Assembly (NCBI GenBank): GCA_963753035.1
Contig: CAVWAW010000023.1
Location: forward strand, 14,944 to 78,943
Direction of reading: 5' to 3'
DNA length: 64,000 nucleotides
DNA from: an uncultured Acidobacteriota bacterium
GTDB lineage: Bacteria; Acidobacteriota; Thermoanaerobaculia; Thermoanaerobaculales; Sulfomarinibacteraceae
Position numbers and translations under genes: made by a program. Below the pieces are notes generated by a model. It saw only the letters and a list, made by a program, of their open reading frames with translations, was not told the DNA's origin and searched no databases. Shown one piece after another: positions 940 to 63,280 of the stretch. How positions within the stretch are numbered: the first letter of the stretch is position 1; each line of letters starts with the position of its first letter.

Positions 940-1947
940 CTACAGGTGGCTGACGTACTCGGGCTCGCCGTCGGCGACGATGAAGGTGCCGGCCTTGCGC
1001 TCGAGGGCCTTTTTCAGGCTGTCGGCATCGGTGATGAGCACCTCTTTGCCCGTCGCCTTGACGAAATCGATGGCCGATTGGACCTTGGGCCCCATGGAAC
1101 CAGGCGGGAATTGGTTTTTCTCCATCATGGCGCACGCCTGGTCCACCGGCAACGAGCGCAGCCACTTCTGATTCGGCCGGCCGTAGTTCTCGGCGATCAT
1201 CGGCACGTTGGTGAGCACGATGAAGAGATCGGCGTTGAGATCGATGGCGAGGATCGACGCGACATAGTCCTTGTCGATGACCGCCTCGACGCCGCGGAAA
1301 TAACCGCCCACGTCCTCGTAGACCGGGATTCCGCCGCCGCCGCCCGCGATGACGATGGCGCTGTCGTCGATGAGCCGCTTGAGCAGCCGACTGTTGAGGA
1401 TGCTGGTGGGTCTCGGCGACGCCACGACCTTGCGCCAGCCGCGGCCGGGCTCCTCCACCATTTCCCATCCGGCCTCCTGCATGAGCAGATTGGCGCGGTA
1501 GGCGGTGTAGTAGGGGCCGACGGGCTTGGAGGGGTTTTCGAACGCCGGGTCGTGTCGGTCCACCACCACCTGTGTCAGAACCGCGGCGATGTCCTTGTCG
1601 AGCTGCTCTTCGTTGAGCCGGTTGCGGATCTGGTTGGCAAGCATGTACCCCATGGAGCCCTGGGTCTGGGCCACCGCCACATCGAGGGACTGGGGCGGGA
1701 TCTTGGTGATGGCCTCCTCGACCTGGATCATGATGTTGCCGACCTGGGGCCCATTGCCGTGGACGATGGCGAGCTCGTAGCCCCGGTGAATGATCTCCAC
1801 CAGCCAGCGGGTCGCCTTCCAGGCGAGGGTGAACTGCTCCTCCTGGGTGCCGTGGTCCTGGGGACGCAGCAGGGCGTTGCCGCCGAAGGCGATGACCGCG
1901 ACCGGTTTGCGGTCGCCGTCGATCTCGATTGAGTTGCGCTCGTTCAT
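940..1947 (-). CDS. arcC: carbamate kinase
   Basis: 335-aa ORF (VIAFGGNALL...AIVHGNGPQVG...) with carbamate kinase family signatures over its full length. GGAGG lies upstream of ATG 1947. Confidence 0.9.
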   Translation of the reverse strand: MNERNSIEIDGDRKPVAVIAFGGNALLRPQDHGTQEEQFTLAWKATRWLVEIIHRGYELAIVHGNGPQVGNIMIQVEEAITKIPPQSLDVAVAQTQGSMGYMLANQIRNRLNEEQLDKDIAAVLTQVVVDRHDPAFENPSKPVGPYYTAYRANLLMQEAGWEMVEEPGRGWRKVVASPRPTSILNSRLLKRLIDDSAIVIAGGGGGIPVYEDVGGYFRGVEAVIDKDYVASILAIDLNADLFIVLTNVPMIAENYGRPNQKWLRSLPVDQACAMMEKNQFPPGSMGPKVQSAIDFVKATGKEVLITDADSLKKALERKAGTFIVADGEPEYVSHL

Positions 1948-2108
1948 GTTGCCTCCACCCCGCTGTGACGGGGAGAACGAGCATTGTGGAACCGGGAGCG
2001 TCGGGTGTCAACATCTCCGTGCCTGTACCCGTTCCCGTTCCCGTGACGATCCAACCCGCAGCGCGCTTCCGACCTGGTTTCCTCGTCGCGCTTCCCGAGA
2101 GTGCCCCC

Positions 2109-2510
2109 CCAAACATTGTTTGTCCCCTACGCCCAAGACAACGGCGAGGCCCTCGTTCCAAACAATGATTTGGAGCGGCACGTCCGTTCGAGGCGATGTC
2201 CGCTAACCCTCGACAGAACGCGGGTCCTGAACCGGGTCAGCGGAAGAAACCGCGGACAGCGCGCCACCTCGGGGTGCGGGGTTTGACAATGTGCCGGATC
2301 GACCTCCCGGCTCGGCGGCGCTCTCCGCACATTGTCATACCGGGCACCCCCGGAGAGCGCGACGAAGTCTGGTTTTCCGGCTCGGGGGCAGGCCGCCGGC
2401 GCCGGAACCTCGCGGTCGCAGCCCTTCAATCCTCCACCCGAGCGACCGCGATGTTCGGGCGACGCTGGGACCAGGGGCGCCCACGGCGCCCCTGGTCCCA
2501 GAAGGCCGGA
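2109..2510 (+). repeat. mosaic multi-hairpin intergenic repeat, copy R1 (modules C-like, B, H1, H2)
   Basis: Hairpins are CATTGTTTG/CAAACAATG (2109-2173), GACAATGTGC/GCACATTGTC (2285-2336), H1 at 2406-2455, and H2 GGGACCAGGGGCGCC-cac-GGCGCCCCTGGTCCC (2467-2499). The unit ends with AGAAGGCCGG. It aligns by eye with copies R2-R7. Confidence 0.8.
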
Positions 2511-2580
2511 GTCGAACACGGTATGGGTGCCTGGCATCCCCTCCCATCGCCTTGCCGGAGCGGATGACCCGAAACCCCGG

Positions 2581-3687
2581 TCACCGCTCCATCGGGTGGG
2601 GGTAGAACTCGGCGAGCTGCTCGTCGTTGGGTGGGTTGTCGAGTGCCCAGCGGGCGAAGTCGGCGATGATGGGGTCGTCGTCCGCCGCGAGTTTCTCGAG
2701 GAGGCTGCGAACCCGCCCTTGCTGGTCAATGGTGCCGAGCTGAGCGATGACGCTGCCCGTCAGGATGACCTCGCCGAAGAACCGTCGTTCGGTCAGACCC
2801 TCGGCCATCTCCATCATGGCGTCGAGGTGGCTGTCCGGCATATCCAGACGAAAGGTGCCCGATGGTTCGCGCCTCAGATACGGCGCCAGATCAACGGAGG
2901 AGATCTTGGTTGCGGTCATCATCCGCTGTGGTGCGAGTTCGCCGAGGATGATTGAAGCGAGCAGGGCGAGCTCGGTGTCGCCTTCGCGCTGGGCAATCCG
3001 ATACACACCCCGCGTCCCGATGTGAATGCAGGCGAGACCCACGAGATCATTGATGATGACCACATCCTCCTGGCGCAGGAGTCGGCCCAGCCTGATGGCG
3101 CGCCGGCAGTCCTCGAGCCCCAGATCCGGATCCTCGGTATCCACACCCCGGCCGGTCCACGAACGCGCCATGGTCAGCATGAAGAGCAGATTGGTGATCC
3201 GCGTTTCGGCACCTTCCATCCGAAAGACCTCCGGATAGAAGCTCATGGTGGCCTGGTCGACCCACGGCTCGGCCTCGAGCAACAGTTCGTCATCACCGGC
3301 GACGATCTGGCCAAGATCACCCTCGGCCTCGAACCGCCGCGACATCAGATCTTCGGCATCACGGGCCCGCGGACCCCTGTTCTTTTCGAAAAGGGCGAAG
3401 AACTCGGCCGCATTGCCGATCCCGTCGCCGAGGGGGGCGATCAGATCGAGATCCGTTCGAAACCGCACCGGCCAGGTCTTGGCCGACGGGCATGACCAGC
3501 ACGGAACCTCGAGCTCTGAGACCGTTGTCGCTCGAGGCGCCTCCAGCAGGAATTGCGGAGGGACCACCAGTCGACTCGTCTGCCACCAGCGAAGAACAAG
3601 ACGCGCTCCGAGAAGGCCTCCGAGGACCAGGACGATGGTGACGGCCGCGGTGATGATGGTTCGGACGGGGTTGGGTGCTGTCTTCAT
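2581..3687 (-). CDS. hypothetical N-terminally membrane-anchored protein, last gene of the ECF sigma operon
   Basis: Start chosen at MKTAPNPV (ATG 3687), which forms an ATGA overlap with the upstream stop. It has one TM helix (IITAAVTIVLVLGGLLGARLVL) followed by about 340 aa, apparently helix-rich by eye. No family recognised. Confidence 0.6.
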   Translation of the reverse strand: MKTAPNPVRTIITAAVTIVLVLGGLLGARLVLRWWQTSRLVVPPQFLLEAPRATTVSELEVPCWSCPSAKTWPVRFRTDLDLIAPLGDGIGNAAEFFALFEKNRGPRARDAEDLMSRRFEAEGDLGQIVAGDDELLLEAEPWVDQATMSFYPEVFRMEGAETRITNLLFMLTMARSWTGRGVDTEDPDLGLEDCRRAIRLGRLLRQEDVVIINDLVGLACIHIGTRGVYRIAQREGDTELALLASIILGELAPQRMMTATKISSVDLAPYLRREPSGTFRLDMPDSHLDAMMEMAEGLTERRFFGEVILTGSVIAQLGTIDQQGRVRSLLEKLAADDDPIIADFARWALDNPPNDEQLAEFYPHPMER

Positions 3688-4079
3688 GACTGATCCTCGT
3701 TGGTTGTGGGTGGCTCGGTTTCGCCGCGATCCCTGGAGATCCGAATCTCCCACGCGGGCAGCTCGATGATGAGGCGTTCCACGTCGATGACCTCGGCAAG
3801 CTCATCGCGTATTGCGGCCGCCGCCATCACCGGCCGGATGGTGTCCGCCGGCCCGGAAGGAGCGCCGGTACCGACGACGATGTGGCCAAAAATCAGGGCC
3901 GCCACCGACGAGGCCCAGACGAGCCGGATCGGTCGACTTCTCCAGAGCGTCAACCAGATGTCGGTTCGGCCATTCGCCGCCATGGCGGCTCGCGCCGCAT
4001 GAAGTGTACGGTCCCTGAGCTCTGGCGGCGGGACCGGCGGGCCCTGCCCTCCGGACATGGGATCAAGAGATTGATTCAT
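3684..4079 (-). CDS. putative anti-sigma factor (single-pass membrane protein)
   Basis: Start chosen at the internal MNQSLDPMSGG (ATG 4079), which overlaps the sigma gene stop by 17 nt. One TM helix (IRLVWASSVAALIFGHIVVG). The call rests on position immediately after an ECF sigma gene; no zf-HC2 motif was seen. Confidence 0.5.
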   Translation of the reverse strand: MNQSLDPMSGGQGPPVPPPELRDRTLHAARAAMAANGRTDIWLTLWRSRPIRLVWASSVAALIFGHIVVGTGAPSGPADTIRPVMAAAAIRDELAEVIDVERLIIELPAWEIRISRDRGETEPPTTNEDQS

Positions 4080-4680
4080 GGTTCTTCTCCAGCAGACGGC
4101 GGAGTTTGGCGACGGCGAGCCGGTGCCGACTCGCGGCGGTAAAGGTCGGCACCCCGGTGATCCGGCCGATCTCACGGAAGGTACAGTCAGCGAAGTGTCT
4201 GAGCAGCAGCACTTCGCGTTGTTTCTCGGACAGCCGGGCGATGAGACGTGAGAGCATTTCGGCTTCGATCCCACGGTCGGGATCGGATGTCGGCGCCTCG
4301 AAGAACGGTGCGTCCTCGATGGCCTCGGCTCGACGCCGTCGTTGTTGGCGAACCAGATCGATCGCCCTGCGGTGGGTGATGGTCAGCAGCCAACGCTTCG
4401 GATGACGCACCCTCGCCAGACGACCACCCAGCTCGGCAACCTTGACAAACACGTCCTGGACAACGTCCTCGGCGTCCTCACGGGATCCGGTGCGCCACAG
4501 AGCGAGACGATAGACATCCGTCGCAGCCAGATCGTAGAGTTCGTCGAGGGCCACGACCCGACCGTCGGCGAGGGCGGAGAAGACTTCACGCCACCGGTTC
4601 TCGGTGTCGCTGGCGCTCGAGGAGCGCACGGTGTCTCCCTCGAGCCACGCGGGTCCTGCCGGTCGGGTCATCGCCTCCAT
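4063..4680 (-). CDS. ECF-type RNA polymerase sigma-70 family factor
   Basis: Region 2 (DAEDVVQDVFVKV...WLLTITHRRAIDLVR) and region 4 (LSEKQREVLLLRHFADCTFREIGRITGVPTFTAASRHRLAVAKLR) are clearly present. Confidence 0.9.
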   Translation of the reverse strand: MEAMTRPAGPAWLEGDTVRSSSASDTENRWREVFSALADGRVVALDELYDLAATDVYRLALWRTGSREDAEDVVQDVFVKVAELGGRLARVRHPKRWLLTITHRRAIDLVRQQRRRRAEAIEDAPFFEAPTSDPDRGIEAEMLSRLIARLSEKQREVLLLRHFADCTFREIGRITGVPTFTAASRHRLAVAKLRRLLEKNHESIS

Positions 4681-4737
4681 GCTAGATCAGACGCTCCAGC
4701 CCTCACGTATTGTCAATTGAGCTCCGGAAAGGCGAGT

Positions 4738-5182
4738 CCGAACCCGATCCCGCGTCTTCTCGAGGCGCCGCAAATCCCCGTGACCTCATCGAGAATGGCC
4801 GAGGGAGCCACCTTTAGCATTGTTCGGGATTGGCATATTCCGTAGATCGGCGACTCACACCCCGAACAATGCAAAAGATGGCACCCCGTTCGAAGCCAGA
4901 ACCTCAGACCCTCCACAGAACGTGGGAAGGGGCGTGCGGCGGGGTGCCGGGCACGCTATTGTGCCGGCTATGGCCTTCCGGTACCGCGACGCGCTGCGCA
5001 CAATGGCGCTGCCGGGCTCCCTCGGGAGGCGCGACGAATTTCGGTTCTCCCGGCCACGATGGAGGCCGCCGGCGCCCGAGCATCGCGGTCGCAGCCCTTC
5101 AATCCTCCACCCGAGCGACCGCGATGCTCGGGCGACGCTGGGACCAGGGGCGCCCACGGCGCACCTGATCCCAGAAGGCCGG
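4738..5182 (+). repeat. mosaic multi-hairpin intergenic repeat, copy R2 (modules C, B, H1, H2; most complete copy)
   Basis: Module C is CATTGTTCGGG...CCCCGAACAATG (about 4815-4870). Module B is ATTGTGCC...GCACAAT (about 4950-5015). H1 has a perfect 16-bp stem at 5077-5130 and H2 is at 5140-5172, followed by CCCAGAAGGCCGG. Confidence 0.85.
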
Positions 5183-5299
5183 GGCTCAGGGAAACCCGAG
5201 TCAGCAACAGCCGCAGGGACAGGAACCGCGGCAGCGGCAGTTGTGCCTAGAAGCGCGATGCCGTACCCGATGACCCCATCGCCTCGCCGGAGCGGATGA

Positions 5300-6165: not shown

Positions 6166-6242
6166 TCGATCCCGATCCCGTTCCTGATCCCGTTCCCGAA
6201 TCGCCAGCGCGGGAACGGGATCAGGAACGGGATCGGGATCGA
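6166..6242. repeat. perfect 33-bp inverted repeat (11-nt spacer) built of CCCGWT-type hexamers, between prfA and prmC
   Basis: TCGATCCCGATCCCGTTCCTGATCCCGTTCCCG (6166-6198), spacer aatcgccagcg, then the exact reverse complement (6210-6242). Checked base by base. Confidence 0.95.
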
Positions 6243-30407: not shown

Positions 30408-30559
30408 GAAAGGGGCGTGCGGCGGGGTGCCGGGTACGCCATTGTGCAGGAACCGCCATCCGGCACCGCCACGCGCTACGCTCAATGGCGCTACCGGGCT
30501 CCCTCGGGAGGCGCGACGATCTTCGGCCTTCTGGGACGTCCGACGTCCCAGAAGGCCGG
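30408..30559 (+). repeat. mosaic repeat, partial copy R3 (module B plus H2, no H1)
   Basis: GGGGCGTGCGGCGGGGTGCCGGGTACGCCATTGTGC...GCTCAATGGCGCTACCGGGCTCCCTCGGGAGGCGCGAC, then a 17-bp palindrome CGGCCTTCTGGGACGTC-c-GACGTCCCAGAAGGCCG. It abuts the glmU stop codon. Confidence 0.8.
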
Positions 30560-30578
30560 AGTCGATTTCCGTCGGCGC

Positions 30579-35049: not shown

Positions 35050-35530
35050 TTGATCATTGTTCGGATTCTCTGATTTTGTCGTCGGTGGATCCTCCGGGCT
35101 GAACAATGTCAAGGGGGGCACTCTCGGCCACCCGCGACGGGAGCATCGGGTTCGGAGGCGCGTGACTGGAAAAGGCACACTCAGCCCCGGCCTTCTGGGC
35201 CGCCGTGACGCCTTCGCGTCCCAGCAACCCAGCGTCGCACCATCGGCGTGGTCGCTCGTGGGTTGATTGGAAGGGCTGCGACCACGCCGATGGCACGCCG
35301 GCGGCCTGCCTCGTAGCCGGAAAAGCAGACCGAAAAGCGCTCCCCGAGGGAGCCCGGTTAGACATTGTGCGGGAAGCGCCGCGAAGCCTGGTGGTCGATC
35401 CGGCACAATGTCAAACCCGGCACGCCCGGTGGAGGCGATGTCCGCGTTTCCTTGTTGCGCATCTTCCTTGTGCCTCGAAAGAACGCGGGACGGGTTCCTT
35501 GAGGGTACGCGGTGTTGGCCTCGAACGAGG
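35050..35530 (-). repeat. mosaic repeat copy R4 (inverted orientation; order on plus strand C, H2, H1, B)
   Basis: CATTGTTCGG/CTGAACAATG (35055-35110), H2 35197-35230, H1 35240-35293 (stem CCATCGGCGTGGTCGC), and module B GACATTGTGC/GCACAATGTC (35361-35412). Confidence 0.8.
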
Positions 35531-35705
35531 CCTGTCGACTTTCTTCCCGACACGAAAAGGGAATTCACAAGTTTTTACGTCAACCAACCAGGGTGTTCCG
35601 CGTACAATCTAAGGTCACTCGTCGGCACACATCACTAACCGACTCATGTCGTTCGATGTTATTGTGTTGGCTGAAAAATTGACGAATGGACTCAAGGAGG
35701 CTTCG

Positions 35706-36857
35706 ATGCGCCGTCTGATCATCGCTGTTGTCGTACTCGCCCTGGTGGCGACCGCTGCGCCTGTTTTTGCCCTCAACTCCGGAACCGACATCATTGTTCC
35801 TGCCGCCGGCCGTGGCGCACCGTGGGCCACCGATCTTTATATTGCAAACCCCGGCAACGAATCAGTGACCGGTTCGGTTTTCTGGTTGGTCCGGGATCAG
35901 GCCAACCCGAACCCGGTGTCGTTCGATTTCACGCTGGCGCCGGGTGAGACCGGTGTCTTCGAGGACGTCATCCTCGCCGACTTCGGTCTCTCGTCGGCTG
36001 GTGGCGCGTTCTTCGTCTCCGCCACTGGCGCGGTGATCGTCAACTCGCGGATCTTCGCCTCCGACGGCACGGCCACCTTCGGCCAGGGTTTTGAAGGAGT
36101 GCCGGTGGGCGGAGCAACCCAGAGCGGCAGCATCGCAACCGTGGTGGGTCTGAGCTTCACCAGCGAATTCCGAACCAACATCTACGCCACGGCCGGTGCT
36201 AACGGCGCCACCATGACCCTTCGGTTGCTCGATCCAGCCGGTACCCAATTCGATTCGGCCGATCTGACGCTGGGCGCCTGGGAACCCTATCTCAAACGCG
36301 TCAACCAACTCTTTCCCAGTGTCGCCAACTTCGACAACGCAACATTGGTTGCCGATATTACGGCCGGCTCGGTAGTGGTCGGTGCCTCAAAGGTCGACAA
36401 CGCGTCCACCGATCCGACGACGCTCGAGTCCGACGCCACCGCTGGTGGATCGACATCCGTTGACGGCACCTACCAGATCTCGATCTATGATTCGGCCCTC
36501 TTCGCCGCCGGCGGTAATTTCGTGATCGATTCAGACATCGTCACCCAGATCAACGCCACCTACTTCAACTGGGACAAGCTCGAGGGCGGCGAACCGGCCT
36601 GCACCCTGCAGTTCCTCTGGGGCCTCGGCATGAGCCCGACTCCGGTTGCCGATTTCGCCTCGGGCGTCAGTTTCTCCGACAGCTACGCCTCCACCGGCAG
36701 CGGCGTCATGACGTGGACCGTAACCTTCACTGTCGAGGACAACATGGTCATCGACGGCACGGTTGCCGCGGTCGGCTCCGATTTCACCGATCCCGACGAG
36801 CTCGGCTGCAACGGCACCTTCCCATCGCTCCCTCTCAGAGGCGGCAAGATGGAATAG
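35706..36857 (+). CDS. secreted hypothetical protein carrying one copy of a ~200-aa uncharacterised module (shared with the 1.4-kaa protein at 42372-46710)
   Basis: AAGGAGG lies 6 nt before ATG 35706. Signal peptide MRRLIIAVVVLALVATAAPVFA. Module landmarks are IVPAAGRGAPWATDLYIANPG, TFGQGFEGV, EFRTNIYATA and ASKVDNASTDPTTL. Confidence 0.75.
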   Translation: MRRLIIAVVVLALVATAAPVFALNSGTDIIVPAAGRGAPWATDLYIANPGNESVTGSVFWLVRDQANPNPVSFDFTLAPGETGVFEDVILADFGLSSAGGAFFVSATGAVIVNSRIFASDGTATFGQGFEGVPVGGATQSGSIATVVGLSFTSEFRTNIYATAGANGATMTLRLLDPAGTQFDSADLTLGAWEPYLKRVNQLFPSVANFDNATLVADITAGSVVVGASKVDNASTDPTTLESDATAGGSTSVDGTYQISIYDSALFAAGGNFVIDSDIVTQINATYFNWDKLEGGEPACTLQFLWGLGMSPTPVADFASGVSFSDSYASTGSGVMTWTVTFTVEDNMVIDGTVAAVGSDFTDPDELGCNGTFPSLPLRGGKME

Positions 36858-36886
36858 CCGTCAGCTGACGGACAAAGAAAAACGCA

Positions 36887-36920
36887 AAGGGCCGCCCACA
36901 TGGGCGGCCCTTTTTTCTTT
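36887..36920 (+). terminator. rho-independent terminator
   Basis: AAGGGCCGCCC-acat-GGGCGGCCCTT followed by TTTTTCTTTCC. Confidence 0.85.
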
Positions 36921-36929
36921 CCTACGTAT

Positions 36930-37400
36930 CCTCGCGCTTCTGAACCCGATGCTCCCGTCGCGGGTGGCCGAGGGAGCCACCTTTAGCATTGTTCGGGACC
37001 AACGTCGCACTGCACATCGGCGGTTCGCAACCCGAACAATGACAAAAGATGGCACCCCGTTCGAGGTCGGTTCCGCGCACTCTCCAGGTAAACATCCCGC
37101 GTTCTTTCGATCCACAAGGAGGAGGCGCATCAAGGAACCGCGGACATCGCCTTCACCGGGCGTGCCGGGCTTGACATTTTTCTACTCCACCACGTTCAGG
37201 CCATGAGCGCGACCGGAAAAACGTCAAGGGGGGCTCCCAAGGGACGCGCGATTCGGTCTGCTATTCCGGCTACGAGGCAGGCCGCCGGCGCGCCATCGGC
37301 GTGGTCGCAGCCCTCCCCGCAACCTCCGCGCGACCACGCCGATGGTGCGACGCTGGGCCGCTGGGACGCCAAAGCGTCACAGCGGCCCAGAAGGCCGGGG
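36930..37400 (+). repeat. mosaic repeat copy R5 (C, degenerate B, H1, H2)
   Basis: GAACCCGATGCTCCCGTCGCGGGTGGCCGAGGGAGCC, then CATTGTTCGGG/CCCGAACAATG. H1 is at 37293-37345 with a stem identical to R4. H2 is GGGCCGCTG-g-GACGC-caaa-GCGTC-a-CAGCGGCCC, then AGAAGGCCGG. Confidence 0.8.
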
Positions 37401-37460
37401 CCGAGGGAGGGATCATTCGTTTCCGGGCACGCGCCTCCGACTTGATTCTCCTTCCGAGCT

Positions 37461-37832
37461 TCAAGGGGCGCCGAGTTGATTCATCGGCCTCGCCGGCGGG
37501 TCCTTCGTCCCCGCCGGTGTCCACGGGCCGCATCTGACGAGGCGTTTTGCTGTCAGCCAACCGCCTCGGAGGGCGCCGTGCTCGCGGACAACGATCTCCG
37601 CGTACGCGCTGCAGGTCGGCGCGAATCGGCACTGGCCTCGCGGAATCAGCGGGTGGCCGATGGCCTGGTAGGCGTGAAGACCACCGATCATGACCCGGGC
37701 GCTGAGCTGCCGCGTGGGTGGTCGCGTGAGGTCCACAGCCAGGGCCGAAAAAAAGACGACGGCGACGACGAGCACCGCTCGCCGTCGCCGAAAAATCTGC
37801 ACCGGTTTCTCGTGGTCAGAACTTATCGGCAA
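37461..37832 (-). CDS. yidD: membrane protein insertion efficiency factor YidD (possible N-terminal extension; alternative start ATG 37691)
   Basis: CRFAPTCSAYAEIVVREHGALRGGWLTAKRLVRCGPWTPAGTKDPP matches the YidD signature CRFxPTCSxY...RxxRCxP...DP. Confidence 0.8.
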   Translation of the reverse strand: MPISSDHEKPVQIFRRRRAVLVVAVVFFSALAVDLTRPPTRQLSARVMIGGLHAYQAIGHPLIPRGQCRFAPTCSAYAEIVVREHGALRGGWLTAKRLVRCGPWTPAGTKDPPARPMNQLGAP

Positions 37833-38408: not shown

Positions 38409-38456
38409 ACAAATTTACGCCCCGCAGTCGTCAACGACTGCGGGGCGTAAATTTGT
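38409..38456 (-). terminator. perfect 22-bp hairpin downstream of tRNA-Glu
   Basis: ACAAATTTACGCCCCGCAGTCG-tcaa-CGACTGCGGGGCGTAAATTTGT. No strong U-tract. Confidence 0.45.
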
Positions 38457-38560: not shown

Positions 38561-38636
38561 TGGTAGCCCGTACGGGATTCGAACCCGTGTTACCGGCGTG
38601 AGAGGCCAGCGTCCTAGACCCCTAGACGAACGGGCC
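38561..38636 (-). tRNA. tRNA-Glu (anticodon CUC), CCA encoded
   Basis: GGCCCGTTCGTCTAGGGGTCTAGGACGCTGGCCTCTCACGCCGGTAACACGGGTTCGAATCCCGTACGGGCTACCA. Folded by hand into a cloverleaf; anticodon loop CUCUCAC. Confidence 0.92.
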
Positions 38637-42142: not shown

Positions 42143-42227
42143 GCCGAAGTGGCGGAATTGGTAGACGCGCACGGTTGAGGGCCGTGTGGAGCGATCCGTG
42201 CCGGTTCGAGTCCGGCCTTCGGCACCA
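42143..42227 (+). tRNA. tRNA-Leu (anticodon GAG), CCA encoded
   Basis: GCCGAAGTGGCGGAATTGGTAGACGCGCACGGTTGAGGGCCGTGTGGAGCGATCCGTGCCGGTTCGAGTCCGGCCTTCGGCACCA. Long variable arm; anticodon loop UUGAGGG. Confidence 0.92.
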
Positions 42228-42229
42228 AA

Positions 42230-42270
42230 TCAATGCGGGCCCGGTCTCTGAGAGACCGGGCCCGCATTGA
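42230..42270 (+). terminator. perfect 19-bp hairpin after tRNA-Leu
   Basis: TCAATGCGGGCCCGGTCTC-tga-GAGACCGGGCCCGCATTGA, followed by TTAGGG (weak U-tract). Confidence 0.6.
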
Positions 42271-42371
42271 TTAGGGCGACCTCTTTTCACACCTCTATCT
42301 TCCAGCGAGACTGTGACGCACGTCGCACCATCGGCGACCGCGTTTGATCCCAAACAGGCTATGATCCCGAG

Positions 42372-45300
42372 ATGAAGTCTCGACTCTTTGGCGCACTCAT
42401 GATCCTGATCGTCGTCTCGCTTGCCTTCGGCTCGCCGGTGGGCGGCATCGGAGCCCATCTCGCAACGCGACGATGAGAGCCGTTCCATCATCGAGCGAAT
42501 CAAGCTGTATCAGGAGCGCCACGGTGTCCGGGGCAGACTCGATTCAGACCAGATGCTCGAGCGGGCCCGATGGGGCTATGAGCGTTGGCTTGCCGCCGAG
42601 CACTCCCGCGCGACAAAGGGAACGATCGCCGAGGGCTGGGTGAGCCTCGGACCGGGAAACGGCGCGGGGCGGATGACCGCCTTGGCGCCCCACCCCGGCG
42701 TGGACGGAACCATCCTCGCCGGCGCGGCCAGCGGCGGGGTCTGGAAGACCATCGATGAGGGCCTGAGCTGGCGGCCCCTGACCGATGGTCTGGCCGATCT
42801 CTCGGTCGGCGCCCTGGCCATCGCACCCTCGAACCCGTCGGTGGTCTATATCGGCAGCGGCGAGGCCGGACTCGGGAGCTTTTTTGTCCCCGGGATCGGG
42901 CTTCTGCGATCCGACGACGGCGGCGAAACCTGGTTCCTGCCCCAGCCCGAGGAGATCGTCGCCGAGCAGTTCTTTGCCCTGTCGGTGGATCCGAGAAACG
43001 AGGACCACGTCCTCGCGGCCACCGAAAAGGGGCTCTTTCAAACCACCGATGGTGGTCTGAGCTGGGATCTTCGTCTCTCGCATCCCGATCTCTACGGTGT
43101 CACCGAGGTCATCCGGTCGGCGGCCGATCCGGATCGGCTGTGGTCGGCCCTGTGGTGCTTCAGCACTTGCCCCGATCCTCTGACGCGAGTCATGACCTCT
43201 GCGGATGCGGGGATGACCTGGGCGCCAGCTGCCGATGGTCTGCCCGACGCCCTGTTCAACAACCCCGTCGCCAACCGCATCGCTCTCGCCGCCGCGCCAT
43301 CGGACGACGAGGTTCTCTACACCGCCCTCAATACCTCGCGCTACACGCCTCAGGGACCTGAAGCTGCGATCTTCCGATCCTCCGATGGCGGATCGACCTG
43401 GACCAACACCAGCGATCCCGGAGCCTACCTGCTCTACCAGGGCTGGTACGACAACGCCATTACCGTCGATCCGACGGATCCGGACGTGGTGGTGGCCGCC
43501 GGTGTCTGGTATGTCCGGTCAACCGACGGCGGCGCCTCCTGGACCACCATGGATCCCATCGCCGCGGGCGACTGGATGGGCACCGAAACCCTGCCCCATG
43601 TCGACGGCCACGCCTTTGCCTGGCAGGGCGACAGCCTGTGGCTGGGATGCGACGGCGGAGTCTGGCTGTCCACCGATGGGGGATCCACCTGGGACGGCCG
43701 CAATGAAACGCTGGTAACCCGCCAGTACTATGGCCTCGACATCGATCCCATCCGTCAGGACCGCATCCTGGGCGGCACCCAGGACAACAAGACCAATCTC
43801 CGGTTTGGTCCCAGTGAGGACGACTGGGAGTGGGTGCTGGACGGGGACGGCTTCGACACGGCCATCAATCCCCTCGTGCCCGATCTGGTTTACGGCACCA
43901 TTTACGGCACCCTCGTTTTCCGCAGCACCGACGGTGGCTTTGTCTGGGAGAACATCTCGCCCACCACCGGCGGCGATCTCACTCCTTTCGCGACACCCCT
44001 GGTCATGAATTCGGACACGCCGTGGCAGCTGTTCACCGGTTCGAGCCGGGTTTGGGAGTCGACCGACGCCGGAACCTCCTGGAGTGCCCTCGGAACCGAG
44101 GTCACGGCCGGCGATTGGTCCATCGAGGTGATCCGAGCCATCGCCATCACCCCGGCCGATGCCACCCGTATGCTCATCGGCAAGGGTTCGGAGCTCTACA
44201 CGAGCTCGGACGGCGGCGCGTCCTGGCGGGTCTCGCCAATGACCAGTTTTGTCAACGCCGTAGCGCTTTCCCCACTCGATCCCGATCTCGCGGTGGCCGG
44301 TCTCGCCCGCACCCCGTCGGGAGAGCCCCAGCTCCTGCGCACCTCGGACGGTGGTCACACCTGGCACGGAGCCGATGCCGGTCTGCCTCCATTCGCCGTC
44401 CAGGCCCTGCGCTGGCACCCGAATGACCCCGATCTCGTCTTCGCCGGCACCGATGTCGGTCTCTACCGTTCGACGGACGGTGGTCTGAGCTGGCTGCCCG
44501 ACGGCGACGGTCTCCCTTCAGCCTCGGTCCACGATATCCGGATCGCCGAGGACGGCTCGCGCATCCTGGTGGCCTCGCACGGCCGCGGTATCTGGGAACT
44601 GCGTCTCTCCGACCCGGTGGGCGAATCGCCGTTGGTCACCCTCGACGGCCCCGTGCTCGCAGTCATCGGAGAACCGGTGGTTTTCTTCGCCAACGCCATC
44701 GACCCCGATGGTGACGAGCTCGAGCTGCGGTGGGTCCACTCCGACCCCTGGCAGCTCCAACCTGCCGCGTTGGGTTCGGGCACGGTGTCCTCGGCACTGC
44801 CGCACCGCTTTGCCTCGGGTGGAGAATATCTGGTGGCCGCCAACGCCATCGACTCCACCGGACGGACGGGTTTCGACTCCATCTTCGTGACGGCCTACGA
44901 ACCCGGGGATGACTGCTCGACGCCACGGGTCATACCCGGCGACGGCCCGTTTCCCTACACGATTCTCACCGAAAATCACGGCGCCACCGTTGGCGCCGAA
45001 GATCCCGAGGTGCCGTGCACCACGTGGCCCGGCGACCCGAACTCGGGCCGTTGGGCGTCGATCTGGCTCGAGTTCACCCCCGAGGTGAGCGGCACCTACA
45101 CCTTCTCGACCTGCGGCTCGGTGCCCGACACCGCGCTCTCCGTCTGGACCGGGCCTTCCTGCGGTCCGTACGAACCCGTCACCGGGGCCTGCAACGACGA
45201 CGACCGGCTGAGAAACTGCCCTGGCCGAGACACCGACTCTTGGCTCGAACTCGAACTCGAAGCCGATTCAACCATCCGGGTCATGCTCGGGGCCACCAAC

Positions 45301-46710
45301 GATGACGAAATCGGCGATCTCCGGATCACCGTCGACTGCCCCTCGTGCCGACCGCCGCCCGATCACTCGAGCCTTCTGGTCTCGGCGGCGGCCCGTACTT
45401 CGGGTTCCCAGAGCAGCTTTTGGACCTCGAACCTGCAGCTGGTCAACGCCGGCGGTGAGGCGGCCACCACCTCCGTCGAGCTCCTTCCCGGTCCCGGCAC
45501 CACTCCCGCCACGGAAAGTTATGATCTCGCCCCCGGCGAAGCGATGACCCTCGATGATGTGGTGGGCGATCTGGTGGGAGGCCGCGGGTCCGGCGCCCTG
45601 CGGCTCACGTCCACAGGAGCCATGGCCGCAACCACCCGAACCTCAACCGCGGGGGATGCAGGTAGTTATGGCCAGGGTATCCCGGCGGCCGGTGAAGCCG
45701 TCATTGCATCGGTCGGAGCGGCTGTGCGGCTCTTCGGCTTCCCGGGTGATCCCGCGTTCCGGACCAATCTCGGTCTCGTCAACCCGGGGACCGACGAGGT
45801 CGACCTCATCATCCGTTTCTACGACCACGAAACCAACGAACTCGCCGATGACCACCGGACCCTCTCCGGCGGGAGTTGGATCCAGTTCAACCGGATCTTC
45901 GAAGACCTCGAGATTGCCGCCGAGGCGGCGCTCGTCGTCATCCGCCAGACCTCCATCAAGGGCAGTTTCTCTGGTTACGCCTCGGTGGTGGACGAACGCA
46001 CCAGCGACCCGACCTATCTCGGCCCCACCGGCATCGGTCGAGTCGGCGATCCGTTGTGGATCTCCGCGGTCGCCCATACCACCGGCGTCGGCGGCGCCCA
46101 GTGGCGCACCGATCTCACCCTCTTCAACCCGGGGACCGGCGATCTCATCACGAGTCTCGAGCTCCTCGGTCCGGATGGCGTCCTGGCCTCGACCAACGTG
46201 CACGTGCCGAAGGGTTGGGTCATCAGCTTTCCTGATGTGGTCGCCGAGACCCTCGGCGCTTCCGGCGCCGGCGCGCTGCGGATCAGCCCGACCCTCGGCA
46301 TCGTCATGGCCAGCAGCCGCACCTATGCGACGACGCCCGACGGCAGCTATGGCCAGGGCATCCCCGGGGTGACCGAGGGCGACGTCTTCACCGACGGCGA
46401 ACGCGGGTTTCTTCCCGGTTTGCGACAGGACGGAGTTTTTCGAACCAACATCGGCTTTGCCAACACCGGTGATGAGCCCGTGGACATCGACGTCGCAGCC
46501 CACGCGGCCGATGGCGGCGCGATCCAGACCGCGAGCTATCGCGTTGAAGGATCATCGTGGGTGCAACTGAATCAACCCCTGCCCGATGGAACCGCGTACG
46601 CAACCGTCACGAGCGCCACACCGGGAGCGCGCTACCTGGCCTACGCCTCGGTCGTCGATCGCGAGACCGACGATCCAACCTATATCGCCGCGGTCCGCGC
46701 GGCAGAATGA
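42372..46710 (+). CDS. large secreted Asp-box (BNR) beta-propeller protein with a pre-peptidase-C-like domain and two C-terminal copies of the ~200-aa module; signal peptide out of frame (+1 disruption between about 42421 and 42474)
   Basis: Eleven SxDxGxTW-type boxes (SDDGGETW, TTDGGLSW, SADAGMTW, SSDGGSTW, STDGGASW and others). MKSRLFGALMILIVVSLAFGSPVGG, encoded from ATG 42372, stops at 42474. The main 1429-aa frame opens at 42421. Confidence 0.8.
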
Positions 46711-48519: not shown

Positions 48520-49975
48520 TCAGGCTTTCATGGTCCGCAGCACCTCGATGGCGCTTCGCAGACGCCATCGGCAGATCTCCTTGCCGAGGACCGCCATGGT
48601 GTCAAACAACGGCGGTGTCGCCACCCTTCCGGTGACGGCGATTCGGATCGGCATGAAGAGTTCCTTTGGTTTGAGCTCGGCGCCCTCGCAGAAGCCGCGC
48701 AGCGCCTCCTCGATGTCGCCGACCGACCAGTCGAGGATGGGATCCAGGGCCTCCTCGAGCAGGAGCCGGAAAATCTTTGCAGTCTGCGGTGGGGTGCGAT
48801 CCCGCATGACCATCTTGGTCTTGGCCGCGTCGTCGTAGTCGACCCCCCCGACAAAAAAGAAGTCCGTGTAGGAGAAGAATTCGGCAAGAGTCTCAATGCG
48901 TTCGTGGGCCAGCGGCAGGACCTCGAGAAGATAGCGGTCGCTGAGCAGGCCGGTCCGCAGGCGAAGCAAGAGGTCTTCAGAACTGCAGACTCCTGATGTG
49001 CTTTCCATTCAGCCAGCTCAACTTGGTCAGATCAAAGACCGGGCCACCGAGACTGATGTCTTCCAGGCGAAAGGCCTCGACGAACTCCTGGAGGGAAAAT
49101 TCCTCGCGCTCGTCGGGCATGGCCCAGCCCATGAGGGCGAGATAGTTGAGCATGGCCTCGGGCAGATAGCCCGCCCGGCGGAAGTAGTTCAGACTCACCG
49201 GGTTCTTGCGTTTCGAGATCTTCGATTTGTCGGCGTTGCGCAGCAGCGGCAGATGGCAGAAGACCGGCGTTTCCCAGCCGAACGCCCGGTAGAGCTGGAC
49301 GTGTTTGGGCAGCGACGAGATCCATTCCTCGGCGCGGATGACGTGGGTGATCTCCATGAGGTGGTCATCGACGACGTTGGCGAGGTGATAGGTGGGGTAG
49401 CCGTCCGATTTGACGAGCACCTGATCGTCGATCTGCACCGCTTCGAAGCTCACTTCGCCGCGGAGCAGGTCATCAACGACGATCTCACCTTCGGTGGGCA
49501 TGGCGAGGCGGATGACGTGGGCCTCGCCCGCCGCCCGCCGCCGCTCCGCTTCGTCCTTGTCGATGGACCGGCAGTGACCGTCGTAACCGAACCGCCCCTT
49601 GGCTGCCTTCTGTTCGGCGCGGAGCTCCTCGAGCCGTTCCCGGGTGCAGAAACACGGGTAGGCGTGCCCGCTCGCCACGAGCATCTCGGCGTGCATGGTG
49701 TAGATCTCCGAGCGCTCGCTCTGACGATAGGGGCCGAATGGGCCGCCGACATCCGGGCCCTCGTCCCAGTCGAGACCGAGCCAGCGCAGGGCATCGAAGA
49801 TCATCGACTCGCTCTCGGTTGTGCTGCGCTGTTGGTCGGTGTCCTCGATGCGCAGGACAAACTGACCGCCGCTCTGACGAGCGAGGGCGTAGTTGAAGAG
49901 CGCGACATAGGCGGTTCCCACATGGGGGTCGCCGGTGGGGCTCGGAGCGATTCGGGTGCGCACGACTTCAGTCAT
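48520..49975 (-). CDS. gltX: glutamate--tRNA ligase, split by a single extra base near 48985
   Basis: The N-terminal ORF (48977-49975) reads [16 protein letters not shown]...KISKRKN...[14 protein letters not shown]-stop. The adjacent frame continues [14 protein letters not shown]...[23 protein letters not shown] to 48520. The junction reads IRSL|SSEDLL once one nucleotide is removed. Confidence 0.85.
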
Positions 49976-50036: not shown

Positions 50037-50129
<93 letters not shown>

Positions 50130-50212
50130 GGCCGGGAGGGGTATTGTACGCACAGACCCTGTGACTGTAAAGAGAGCGCTCCGCAGAGACGCTCTCCCGC
50201 GTCCGCGTCCGG

Positions 50213-50416
50213 TCCCGATCCCGTTCCCGATCCCGTATCCCGATCCCGATCCCGATGGTGCAGTGGCTGCGTCCGAGGCTGCGTCAGGTCACGCTGCCTA
50301 TCTACTGCCGCGACCGCGGACGCTGCTCCTGCCTCGGCCCCGGTCGCTGCCGCTGTCCCGGGCGCTGTCACGGCCCCGGCCGCGGAAACGGATACGGATA
50401 CGGATACGGATACGGA
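50213..50416. repeat. hexamer microsatellite pair in inverted arrangement: (CCCGWT)n at 50213-50256 and (CGGATA)n at 50388-50416
   Basis: The left run is TCCCGATCCCGTTCCCGATCCCGTATCCCGATCCCGATCCCGAT. The right run is ACGGATACGGATACGGATACGGATACGG. Related hexamers occur at 2028-2043, 6166-6242, 30298-30318 and 63168-63250. Confidence 0.8.
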
Positions 50417-50432
50417 CGCCCGATTCTTTCAG

Positions 50433-50672
50433 CCCCGGCCTTCTGGGCCGCCCTTGGCGACCCAGCGTCGCATGAGCAGCGTGGTCACACGAGGGTCGAT
50501 TGAAAGGGCTGCGACCACGCTGCTCATGCGCCGGCGGCCTCCTTCTGAGCTTGAGCAGAAGACTTCAAGGCGCCTCCCGAGGGAGCCCGGTCGGCATTTG
50601 TGCGTGATGCGCTGCATTGCCGGGAGGTCGCGCTGGCACAAATGCGGACCCGGCACGCCCGGTGTGGCGCGT
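50433..50672 (-). repeat. mosaic repeat copy R6 (inverted; H2, H1, B)
   Basis: CCCCGGCCTTCTGGG, H2 at 50445-50463, and H1 at 50471-50528 (stem CATGAGCAGCGTGGTC). Module B is CATTTGTGC/GCACAAATG (about 50596-50645). Confidence 0.8.
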
Positions 50673-50743: not shown

Positions 50744-50831
50744 GGAGGGATGGCCGAGTGGTCGAAGGCGCTGGTCTTGAAAACCAGTGAGGTGCAAGCC
50801 TCCGTGGGTTCGAATCCCACTCCCTCCGCCA
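50744..50831 (+). tRNA. tRNA-Ser (anticodon UGA), CCA encoded
   Basis: GGAGGGATGGCCGAGTGGTCGAAGGCGCTGGTCTTGAAAACCAGTGAGGTGCAAGCCTCCGTGGGTTCGAATCCCACTCCCTCCGCCA. Anticodon loop CUUGAAA. Confidence 0.92.
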
Positions 50832-52202: not shown

Positions 52203-52277
52203 GGGCAACAGGTTCATACATTCGGTGATTCTCGGCAGACGCCGACAAACTAAAACCGAATGTGCGAACCTGGCACC
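52203..52277 (+). repeat. hairpin module D, copy 1
   Basis: CAGGTTCATACATTCGGTGATTCTCGGCAGACGCC (52209-52243), then ACCGAATGTGCGAACCTGGCACC pairing back. The 35-mer is identical to 55109-55143. Confidence 0.85.
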
Positions 52278-55172: not shown

Positions 55173-55205
55173 GATTTGGCTTCGGTCCGCAAGCCCGTTC
55201 TTCAA

Positions 55206-55448
55206 CCCCGGCCTTCTGGGACGCCTCAGGCGTCCCAGCGTCGCACGGGCAGCGTGGTCATTCGGTGGTGGATTGAAAGGGCGGCGACCACGCTGCCCGC
55301 GCGAGCGGCGGCCTCCTTCCAAGCCGGAACAGCCGGTAATCAGCGTCCTACCCGTGGAGTGCCCGGTCCCCATTTGTGCGGGAGGCGGCGCGTTGCCGGG
55401 AGATCTTTCCTGCGCAAATACGGACCCGGCACATCCCGGTGTGGCGGT
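55206..55448 (-). repeat. mosaic repeat copy R7 (inverted; H2, H1, B)
   Basis: CCCCGGCCTTCTGGGACGCC-tca-GGCGTCCCAG, and H1 at 55246-55299 (stem CGGGCAGCGTGGTC). Module B is CCATTTGTGC...GCGCAAATA. Confidence 0.8.
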
Positions 55449-63129: not shown

Positions 63130-63280
63130 CGTAGCAACGGCAGGGGCAGCGGCAGCGTCCGTGACTGTGGCAGTGGCGGTGGCAGTGGCAGTGGCAGTGG
63201 CAGTGGCCGTGACCGTTACCGTATCCCTGGCCGCGACAGTTACCGTATCCGTAGCTGCGGTCGCGTTCCGGCACGTCACG
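63130..63280. repeat. hexamer microsatellite block, (GGCAGT)n core at about 63168-63212
   Basis: TGGCAGTGGCGGTGGCAGTGGCAGTGGCAGTGGCAGTGGCCGTGACCGTTACCGTATCC...GTTACCGTATCCGTAGC. Lies between the convergent fabL and uvrA genes. Related to the 50213-50416 block. Confidence 0.8.

Follow-up and report, generated by a model that had tools for sequence, protein, structure and literature searches.

The window analyzed here is a 64-kb stretch (64,000 nt in all) of contig CAVWAW010000023.1, from an uncultured bacterium of the Thermoanaerobaculia (Acidobacteriota). Its intergenic regions carry a ~255-nt multi-hairpin, non-coding repeat, present as six full copies and one short copy, all intergenic, or about one copy per 9 kb. 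The neighbors of these copies are housekeeping genes, including kdtA, prmC, prfA, recR-dnaX, yidD, gap-pgk, gltX, and lptD, together with genes for an amino-acid kinase, an extracytoplasmic function (ECF) sigma factor, a transaldolase, a Ser/Thr kinase, and tRNAs. A preliminary description had singled out a hairpin at 5077-5130 as one of six, each with a near-invariant 22-nt loop on a copy-specific stem, and had implicitly read the hairpin as a self-contained RNA. The six hairpins are present at the coordinates and with the arms given there, and an inverted-repeat search recovered all of them, with arms of 19-32 nt that are 78-96% complementary and 20-26 nt between the arms. When the six copies were aligned with their flanks, conservation extended well past the hairpin, which is the central arm (HP1) of the larger repeat and not a stand-alone unit.

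A profile of the family, built from 86 members and 262 positions long, describes the whole element. Its order is HP-A, a long imperfect hairpin (GGGGTGCCGGG..CATTGTGC / GCACAATG..CCGGGCNCCC in the consensus fold), then HP-B, a weaker helix in the same fold, then HP1 and HP2, two arms of a three-way junction that a GGCC/GGCC stem closes; conserved linkers join the four. HP1 has a stem of 19-24 bp and a loop of 20-26 nt, its arms lie centrally with conserved modules on either side, and it is followed by GCGACG.... HP2 is a CTGGG...CCCAG hairpin that occurs in a 10-bp and a 17-bp form and is followed by AGAAGGCCGG. The boundaries of the element are fuzzy by eye, with subfamily-specific extensions, and the left flanks of copies show no conservation past ~45 nt.

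Copy 1 (2264-2516, + strand; nhmmer E = 2e-50, profile positions 4-257 of 262) has as neighbors the 3′ end of an open reading frame (ORF) at 2581-3753(-) and, at 940-1947(-), the amino-acid kinase gene, whose 5′ end faces it. Its HP-A, at 2260-2361(+), reads GGGGTGC(C)GGG..CATTGTGC / GCACAATG..CCGGGC.CCC; its HP1, at 2397-2464(+), is a 23-nt inverted repeat, 87% complementary, with a loop identical to that of copy 2; and its HP2, at 2465-2501(+), is of the long form, a 17-nt inverted repeat with 100% complementarity. Copy 2 (4941-5193, +; E = 9.5e-51) holds the hairpin originally flagged at 5077-5130, which is real and had been drawn too short: the helix of this HP1 (5070-5137, +) reaches ~23 bp, pairing 5070-5092 with 5115-5137 (23-nt arms, 96% complementary) around a 22-nt loop at 5093-5114. 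The remaining full copies lie upstream of dnaX (35178-35433, -; E = 1.5e-69 plus inverted repeats; HP1 at 35240-35293), downstream of a secreted-protein gene (37152-37408, +; E = 4.9e-55; HP1 at 37293-37345), between two divergent tRNA genes at 50041-50129(-) and 50744-50828(+) (50424-50668, -; E = 1.7e-60 plus inverted repeats; HP1 at 50466-50533), and between lptD and the Ser/Thr kinase gene (55198-55441, -; E = 1.9e-56 plus an inverted repeat; HP1 at 55241-55304). HP-A equivalents are found at 4941-5022(+), 35344-35429(-), and 50577-50662(-), and the copies at 37152 and 55441 have theirs at the left end; the three HP-A inverted repeats listed for the window have arms of 27-35 nt that are 77-81% complementary. 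A pattern with 24 bases specified, drawn from the HP2 region on the 3′ side of the hairpin, matches the six full copies and nothing else in the window, with 0 expected. From these pattern matches, HP2 equivalents were placed at 5138-5174(+), 37353-37390(+), and 35195-35232(-), and in the short form at 50443-50465(-) and 55216-55238(-).

Within HP1, the hierarchy of conservation is the opposite of that first described. The loops at 2420-2441 and 5093-5114 are identical, as had been stated, and with up to three mismatches allowed AGCCCTTCAATCCTCCACCCGA matches these two loops only. The remaining four loops of the window are at least four substitutions and/or indels away from it and have little in common except (A/C)GCCCT and a C-rich composition. 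Among the 86 family members, the loop takes 76 distinct sequences (50% C and 14% G overall) and carries 0.75 bit of information per column, compared with 1.67 in the inner stem and 0.95-1.18 in the outer stem. The picture of a conserved functional loop on a stem that varies is not supported, the loop being the part of the hairpin that varies most. The outer stem does vary in sequence among copies with pairing retained, as the preliminary description held; instead of being copy-specific, its variants are subfamily types common to several genomes, including CCATCGG, CGAGCAG, CGATCAG, CGGGCAG, TGAGCAG, and others.

Selection on folding, and not on primary sequence, had been proposed from the six hairpins, and strong covariation across the family bears out that pairing is what the stems keep. 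In an alignment of 86 distinct copies (A4), 95.2% of the cells in 45 pairs are standard pairs, and both sides have changed at 30 of the 45 pairs, amounting to 394 cells. None of 500 column shuffles attained any of five covariation measures, and sliding the 3′ partner by 1-3 columns lowered pairing to 30-51%. The HP1 helix (159-181/210-231) is 96.2% paired, with 13 of 21 pairs changed on both sides; pair 168/223, for example, is CG in 40 copies and GC in 35, pair 172/219 is GC in 41 and AU in 39, and pair 170/221 is UA in 49 and GC in 19. In the HP2 helix (232-242/265-275), pairing stands at 93% and two-sided changes affect 7 of 9 pairs. HP-A (17-41/78-105) covaries as strongly: it is 87% paired, and 17 of its 22 pairs show change in both partners.

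The two strands of the element are not equivalent. Stems read in the forward orientation contain 158 G·U cells versus 39 A·C cells, with G·U exceeding A·C at ~24 pairs and the reverse at 7. The alifold consensus of the forward strand reaches -66 kcal/mol versus -45 for the reverse strand, and the RNA fold of copy 2 gives -150.7 kcal/mol (z = -4.6) on the + strand and -141.7 (z = -3.1) on the reverse. Because the signal of a duplex or cruciform would be symmetric, one particular strand, as RNA or single-stranded DNA, is taken to be the folding species. Clean covariation combined with strand asymmetry makes this family a good system for asking whether selection acts on single-stranded DNA or on RNA.

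The family extends well beyond the window. In a species-representative genome collection, the 24-base pattern occurs in at least 82 stretches, nearly all from metagenome-assembled genomes (MAGs) of the Acidobacteriota/Thermoanaerobaculia/Thermoanaerobaculales, and nhmmer found at least 131 matches, 91 of them full length, in the window plus 82 loci taken from among the matches listed (~8 kb or less each, ~0.69 Mb in total, cited below by L number). Viral contigs gave 0 matches to the element. Copies within one genome have a mean identity of only 68%, yet 51 of 84 copies have their nearest neighbor in their own genome, versus 15% expected, a within-genome clustering that reflects concerted evolution. 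Full copies were also seen in bins labelled Methylomirabilota, Gemmatimonadetes, Ilumatobacteraceae, and Gammaproteobacteria (L008, L023, L034, L035, L057, and L060 [DATHSO]; L018/L066; L072; L078). The "Methylomirabilota" MAG is syntenic with the window at 77-80% DNA identity, which makes that label doubtful, and the repeat may serve to flag mis-binned contigs or mislabelled MAGs and possibly as a lineage marker. Some MAG contigs end inside copies, such as those of L034, L010, and L061.

No named family accounts for the element, in agreement with what had been reported from the hairpin. At the gathering threshold, Rfam (4227 models) returned only four tRNAs from the whole window, and relaxing the cutoff to E up to 10 over 35100-37500, a stretch with two copies, gave only chance-level matches to unrelated families. 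Neither Acido-1 nor Acido-Lenti-1 appeared, insofar as they are among the 4227 families searched, and no described family of repetitive extragenic palindromic (REP) sequences or miniature inverted-repeat transposable elements (MITEs) was found to match. Literature searches returned no paper joining Thermoanaerobaculia with repeat and intergenic, and nothing relevant for Thermoanaerobaculum repeats. As far as Rfam and the searched literature show, the family is undescribed.

Copies follow no orientation rule relative to neighboring genes. With a crude gene caller, the 69 copies with callable neighbors fall into the four orientation classes as 16, 18, 18, and 17, which is random. No convincing sigma-70-like promoter was seen at the two copies scanned, and a terminator scan found no U-tract or intrinsic terminator at HP1 or HP2, the same scan finding the canonical terminator of a neighboring gene at 36886-36913. 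Random orientation together with the lack of a promoter and U-tract argues against a cis-regulatory mRNA element, and with HP1 being one module of a four-helix mosaic repeat, the implicit reading as a self-contained RNA is not supported. At the ends of the element, the k-mers shared by left and right flanks match the shuffled expectation, giving no sign of a target-site duplication, and no terminal inverted repeats (TIRs) were found by eye (left GGGGTGCCGGG versus right CCCAGAAGGCCGGGGC). The absence of both, along with the fuzzy ends, matches REP sequences and bacterial interspersed mosaic elements (BIMEs) or elements of the insertion sequence (IS) IS200 type, and not MITEs with TIRs.

Gain and loss of copies can be followed in a syntenic series found via homologs of the secreted protein encoded at 35646-36857. 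The window has one copy in the intergenic region on the dnaX side of this gene and one full copy downstream. The DATHSO MAG (L057/L034; 81% protein identity to the window) has one full copy in the downstream region; L083 (91%) has one copy on the dnaX side and an internally deleted copy downstream; L084 (82%) has two tandem copies on the dnaX side and none downstream; and L085 (74%) and L086 (70%) have none on either side. Orthologous intergenic regions thus hold 0, 1, or 2 copies, and occupancy of the same regions is shared by genomes with ~78-91% identity in flanking DNA or protein. The empty regions of L085 and L086 are too diverged for a junction to be placed. In the DATHSO counterpart of the copy at 37152-37408, HP1 has three pairs changed with full compensation, plus one G·T, and it bears the DATHSO genome's own stem type. 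Chimeric copies with mismatched arms occur at L014, L033, L063, and L066. The overall picture is of an old, structured, recombining repeat population with gain and loss, and neither a recently bursting MITE nor a fixed regulatory site.

A larger structural difference lies beside copy 1. Compared with L014 (4404-4705 on a syntenic MAG contig that is 83-90% identical), the window at 2018-4750 has an extra 2.5 kb that comprises copy 1, the ORF at 2581-3753 (no Pfam match), and the ECF sigma factor gene at 4063-4680, and this segment is bounded by short similar motifs, GGCACGTCCGTTCGAGG... / GGCGAGTCCGAACCCGATC.... Recombination between copies 1 and 2 was considered as the origin of the single copy in L014 and rejected: L014 keeps the segment upstream of copy 2, and the 2.5-kb difference is therefore an indel and not an exchange between elements. 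The repeat fills a sizeable share of the intergenic DNA and, as in this indel by copy 1, coincides with structural differences between related genomes.

The modules of the element also occur in other combinations. The seventh copy in the window (30424-30565, +) lacks HP1 and aligns by nhmmer to profile positions 11-111 and 208-256 only; it consists of the HP-A module fused to a near-perfect 20-bp hairpin, CTTCGGCCTTCTGGGACGTC / GACGTCCCAGAAGGCCGGAG (30521-30561), its left side ...GGCCTTCTGGG forming the near-perfect 20-bp palindrome with CCCAGAAGGCC. This junction is the sole instance in the ~0.69 Mb; no simple deletion within a full copy could create it, and templated (strand-switch) repair is suggested. 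A related stand-alone hairpin module, HP-Z (GGGGTGCCATCTTTTGCATTGTTCGGG...CCCGAACAATGCTAAAGGTGGCTCCC; 26-nt arms, 88% complementary), lies at 4803-4886(-), with a second copy near 36950-37070 and a related double-footed module at ~2101-2181, on the evidence of alignments and a scan for GTGCC-footed hairpins. Another related module lies at ~52205-52276. The related modules share a (G)GTGCC base and CATTGT/ACAATG near the top, and they stand alone or adjoin an element. In the window, 11 of 186 GTGCC sites are followed by a hairpin, versus 1% at random positions. The modules suggest that intergenic DNA is filled by palindromic units belonging to one superfamily. Elements also stand in tandem, two or three in the same orientation with a period of ~420-680 nt, at L001 (3591-5049), L012 (2636-3749), L084 (2870-3595), L065, and L074, and the spacers of these arrays consist of hairpin modules that are repeated as well.

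Outside the window, an insert of ~100 nt occupies the HP1 loop of five copies, which lie on five contigs from three MAGs, and is 94-98% identical among them (L022, 2293-2398; L063, 2295-2398; L077, 6696-6799; L049, 3698-3801; L028, 3216-3320). The site is constant (...CCCTyTCAA / insert / CAATC...), with CAA on either side, and the insert has subterminal hairpins, CGCTCG/CGAGCG and GTGCGC/GCGCAC, and lacks TIRs. Because the host stems belong to different types, the five insertions are independent. To judge from its sequence, the insert resembles a miniature IS200/IS605 derivative, or palindrome-associated transposable element (PATE), that would target the HP1 loop. Its repeated use of this site suggests that the loop is exposed as single-stranded DNA in vivo, and an activity of the Y1 type may be present in the genomes that carry it.

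The closest descriptive parallel to this family is the REP/BIME/REPIN system of E. coli and Pseudomonas, in which REP sequences are associated with tyrosine transposases (RAYTs) and paired into REP doublets forming hairpins (REPINs) (PMC3116915, PMC3337134, PMC6006769). Shared features include an extragenic location with many copies per genome; palindromic units in which the hairpin matters over the sequence, with several stem subfamilies per genome; inverted doublets, mosaics, and clusters; an absence of TIRs and target duplications; a strand-specific hairpin; and vertical persistence over long periods, such that different species share some copies at a common intergenic region. The likeness to BIMEs in particular, as mosaics of palindromic units with conserved linkers that occur singly or clustered, is descriptive only and implies no sequence relation to the BIMEs of E. 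coli; the short form without HP1, the stand-alone HP-Z modules, and the tandem arrays with a module in the spacer are the evidence for mosaicism. The element differs from REPs in being a fixed ~255-nt composite of four helices that include a three-way junction, and from the REP/RAYT system in that its hosts are Thermoanaerobaculia and not Proteobacteria and that no RAYT was found in the window and the 82 loci.

A precedent nearer in taxonomy comes from the Acidobacteria themselves, where Y1 transposase genes (TIRYT/subclass 2.2 and class 3) are reported to be flanked by atypical hairpins, of which Solibacter usitatus has ~600 copies (PMC6006769, PMC3733652). These are also high-copy hairpins that depart from canonical REPs, in the same phylum. 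Acidobacterial subclass-2.2 REPs begin with GGGTGCC(CCA...) (PMC6006769), and the start of HP-A, GGGGTGCC(GGG...), resembles this GGGTGCC/GGGTGC foot; the TIR motif of the acidobacterial Y1 system, GGGGWSAS, agrees with GGGGTGCC at 7 of 8 positions. In contrast, the GTGCC of HP-A lies mostly within the basal stem and not in an unpaired foot as in acidobacterial REPs, and the acidobacterial Y1-associated units are single hairpins of 25-50 nt, and no linked Y1 gene was found for the element in the window and the 82 loci. This precedent is a lead and not evidence of membership.

Several other systems share parts of the design. The families ERIC, Correia/NEMIS, BOX, RUP, and SMAG mostly have TIRs and target duplications (TA for Correia), and the identity between their copies is higher. 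Like them, the element is 100-300 nt long, is intergenic in either orientation, and would form long hairpins when transcribed, and its modular construction recalls the A-B-C modules of BOX; unlike them, it has no TIRs, target duplication, or high identity. PATEs derived from IS200/IS605 likewise have hairpins in place of TIRs, produce no target duplication, and follow a strand-specific logic of single-stranded DNA. The element differs from these in that no conserved flanking target tetranucleotide can be defined, in its mixed orientation within one replichore-like stretch, and in the lack of TnpA or TnpB nearby. Integron attC sites were rejected as a candidate, with no RYYYAAC...GTTRRRY core sites visible by eye in the consensus, mixed orientations, housekeeping neighbors, and no integrase; intrinsic terminators were also rejected, since no U-tract directly follows HP1 or HP2.

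On balance, and at about even confidence, the element is read here as a REP/BIME-like mosaic repeat whose hairpins are selected via a trans-acting enzyme, plausibly of the HUH/Y1 type, that recognizes them on one DNA strand in single-stranded form. Copying and maintenance would act on the set of hairpins that one specific strand adopts in the single-stranded state, and a structure-recognizing enzyme, most plausibly a single-copy, RAYT-like HUH/Y1 protein, would amplify and maintain the population, perhaps to the present day. Such an enzyme would account for drifting loops beside stems that covary in subfamilies. Mosaics, chimeric arms, tandem arrays, and homogenization within genomes would follow from recombination or gene conversion between copies, and any effects on the host would be secondary, through structured transcript segments in either orientation or as substrates for rearrangement. 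If correct, this reading would extend structure-selected repeats of the REP/BIME type to the Thermoanaerobaculia, a class that is barely studied and known largely from MAGs, in an unusually large, fixed four-helix format, and the repeat would offer a handle for finding the responsible enzyme.

Several findings weigh against a REP/BIME-like repeat maintained by a Y1 enzyme. No Y1/HUH or other transposase gene was found in the window or in the loci (up to ~8 kb) around ~130 copies, by phmmer with IS200 and IS608 TnpA sequences and by an HUH...Y regular expression over 5003 ORFs, a search of limited sensitivity. Neighbor clustering showed no protein family that recurs beside copies; the one cluster that does recur, a large, secreted, multi-domain family, bears no relation to where the copies lie. 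Among the loci no clean empty site was found, with repeat-to-repeat matches only, and the copies are old (~68-84% identical), making present-day mobility a presumption. Orientations in the window are mixed (+ + + - + - -) though cumulative GC skew runs one way, a misfit to strict lagging-strand targeting as in IS608. At ~68 nt, HP1 exceeds the 21-65 nt size range of REPs and has no GT[AG]G foot; its 5′ flank, AGGCCGCCGGCG, and its 3′ flank, GCGACGCTGGG, contain no GTAG or GTGG on either strand. The class-3 consensus is a hairpin of ~26-29 nt, CnGA-GCCGCGACC-GTnA-GGGAGCG (Table S1 of PMC6006769), and a search with CnGAGCCGCGACCGTnAGGGAGCG (up to four substitutions) gave three scattered matches, none in elements. 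Finally, G·U is the commonest state at several proposed pairs, namely 113/132, 111/134, 17/105, and 166/225, which is more typical of RNA than of DNA hairpins.

The main rival is a multi-copy family of structured RNAs, in which transcription of the forward strand, from a promoter within the element or through read-through, would yield a four-helix fold with a C-rich, G-poor HP1 loop as the functional product; such RNAs could act as small RNAs, as protein sponges, or as cis elements for transcript stability or processing. The excess of G·U over A·C, the four pairs at which G·U dominates, the better folding of the forward strand in both consensus and single-copy folds, the strong covariation, a loop composition expected if the loop is kept unpaired, and the persistence of some copies in the same intergenic region across genomes with ~80% identical flanks all favor it. 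The evenly split orientations, however, do not, nor do the lack of a sigma-70-like promoter and U-tract in an organism that uses canonical terminators, the unconserved left flanks, and the absence of an Rfam match. The loop, the obvious interaction surface, is the least conserved part, and presence/absence, tandem arrays, internal deletions, and chimeric arms are behaviors of repeat DNA. A structured-RNA family is accordingly regarded as possible, on the unlikely side. A broader proposal, judged unlikely, is a new kind of strand-specific structured replicator or RNA: either forward-strand RNAs with a conserved four-helix fold from hundreds of loci, or a hairpin-based mobile element served by an enzyme outside the known RAYT/IS200 classes. 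The HP1 loop would in both cases be a single-stranded docking site, one that the PATE-like insert has come to target as well.

Complementary arms could also be kept without functional selection if quasipalindrome template switching or repair within hairpins, together with gene conversion, acted on a neutral old repeat. The short-copy palindrome at 30521-30561, whose left arm …GGCCTTCTGGG looks templated from the right arm, the chimeric copies with mismatched arms, and the clustering of copies by genome are what such a process would leave. Template switching predicts no bias of G·T over A·C, whereas the observed bias is 4 to 1 over many pairs; identical compensated stem types are common to several genomes; and inner stems are far more informative than loops and linkers, which indicates constraint and not mere symmetrization. 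Upkeep of the pairing by such mechanisms alone would explain the perfect short form but not the strand asymmetry and is improbable. The size of ~255 nt, intergenic location, and copy number would suit a classical MITE, an internally deleted insertion sequence with TIRs and a DDE transposase in which the HP1 arms are fused inverted repeats. The ends show neither TIRs by eye nor target-site duplication above shuffled expectation, the HP1 arms are central and not terminal, copies are only ~68% identical, and no transposase was found in the ~0.69 Mb of context, leaving this explanation largely refuted and very unlikely. Least credible is the anti-Shine-Dalgarno hairpin hinted at in the preliminary description, in which ribosome-binding sites or 16S rRNA would be met by CCUCC in the loop or, for the opposite strand, by GGAGG. 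CCTCC is present in the loops at 2420-2441, 5093-5114, and 37309-37329, but in only 29 of the 86 loops family-wide, which comprise 76 distinct sequences, and the hairpins have no fixed position or orientation relative to start codons. Covariation that survives the shuffle and slid-partner controls, with neither a cognate transposase nor a known family found, leaves the idea of a structure under selection standing, and the REP/BIME-like repeat is the form of it preferred here.

The gene at 35646-36857, between the inverted copies at 35178 and 37152, was considered as a candidate transposase and rejected; it encodes a secreted hypothetical protein without a Pfam domain, and its synteny, recR-dnaX, this gene, yidD, gap-pgk, is kept with or without repeats. 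The protein is lineage-specific, with at least 351 homologs in metagenomes, and is paralogous to repeats within a 1429-aa protein encoded at 42421-46710. Most of its orthologs start 20 codons downstream, at M21 (MRRLII...). A glutamyl/glutaminyl-tRNA synthetase at 48520-49975(-) is represented by two overlapping ORFs, one (48977-49975) with the catalytic domain and the other (48520-49008) with the anticodon-binding domain, which could reflect a frameshift, an assembly error, or a genuine split.

The window contains further palindromes and repeats besides those of the element. A perfect palindrome with 33-nt arms, made of CGATCC/CCCGTT-type hexamer repeats, occupies 6166-6242 in the spacer that separates prmC from prfA. 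Tandem repeats of similar, G+C-rich hexamers are present at 50209-50256 (CCGATC), 50383-50416 (CGGATA), and 63139-63211 (GGCAGT), and also in the right flanks of elements at several loci. Two long, near-perfect palindromes unrelated in sequence to the element lie beside tRNA genes: one at 42225-42275 (25-nt arms, 96%), directly after the tRNA at 42143-42224, and one at 38409-38456 (23-nt arms, 100%), ~110 nt from the tRNA at 38564-38636.

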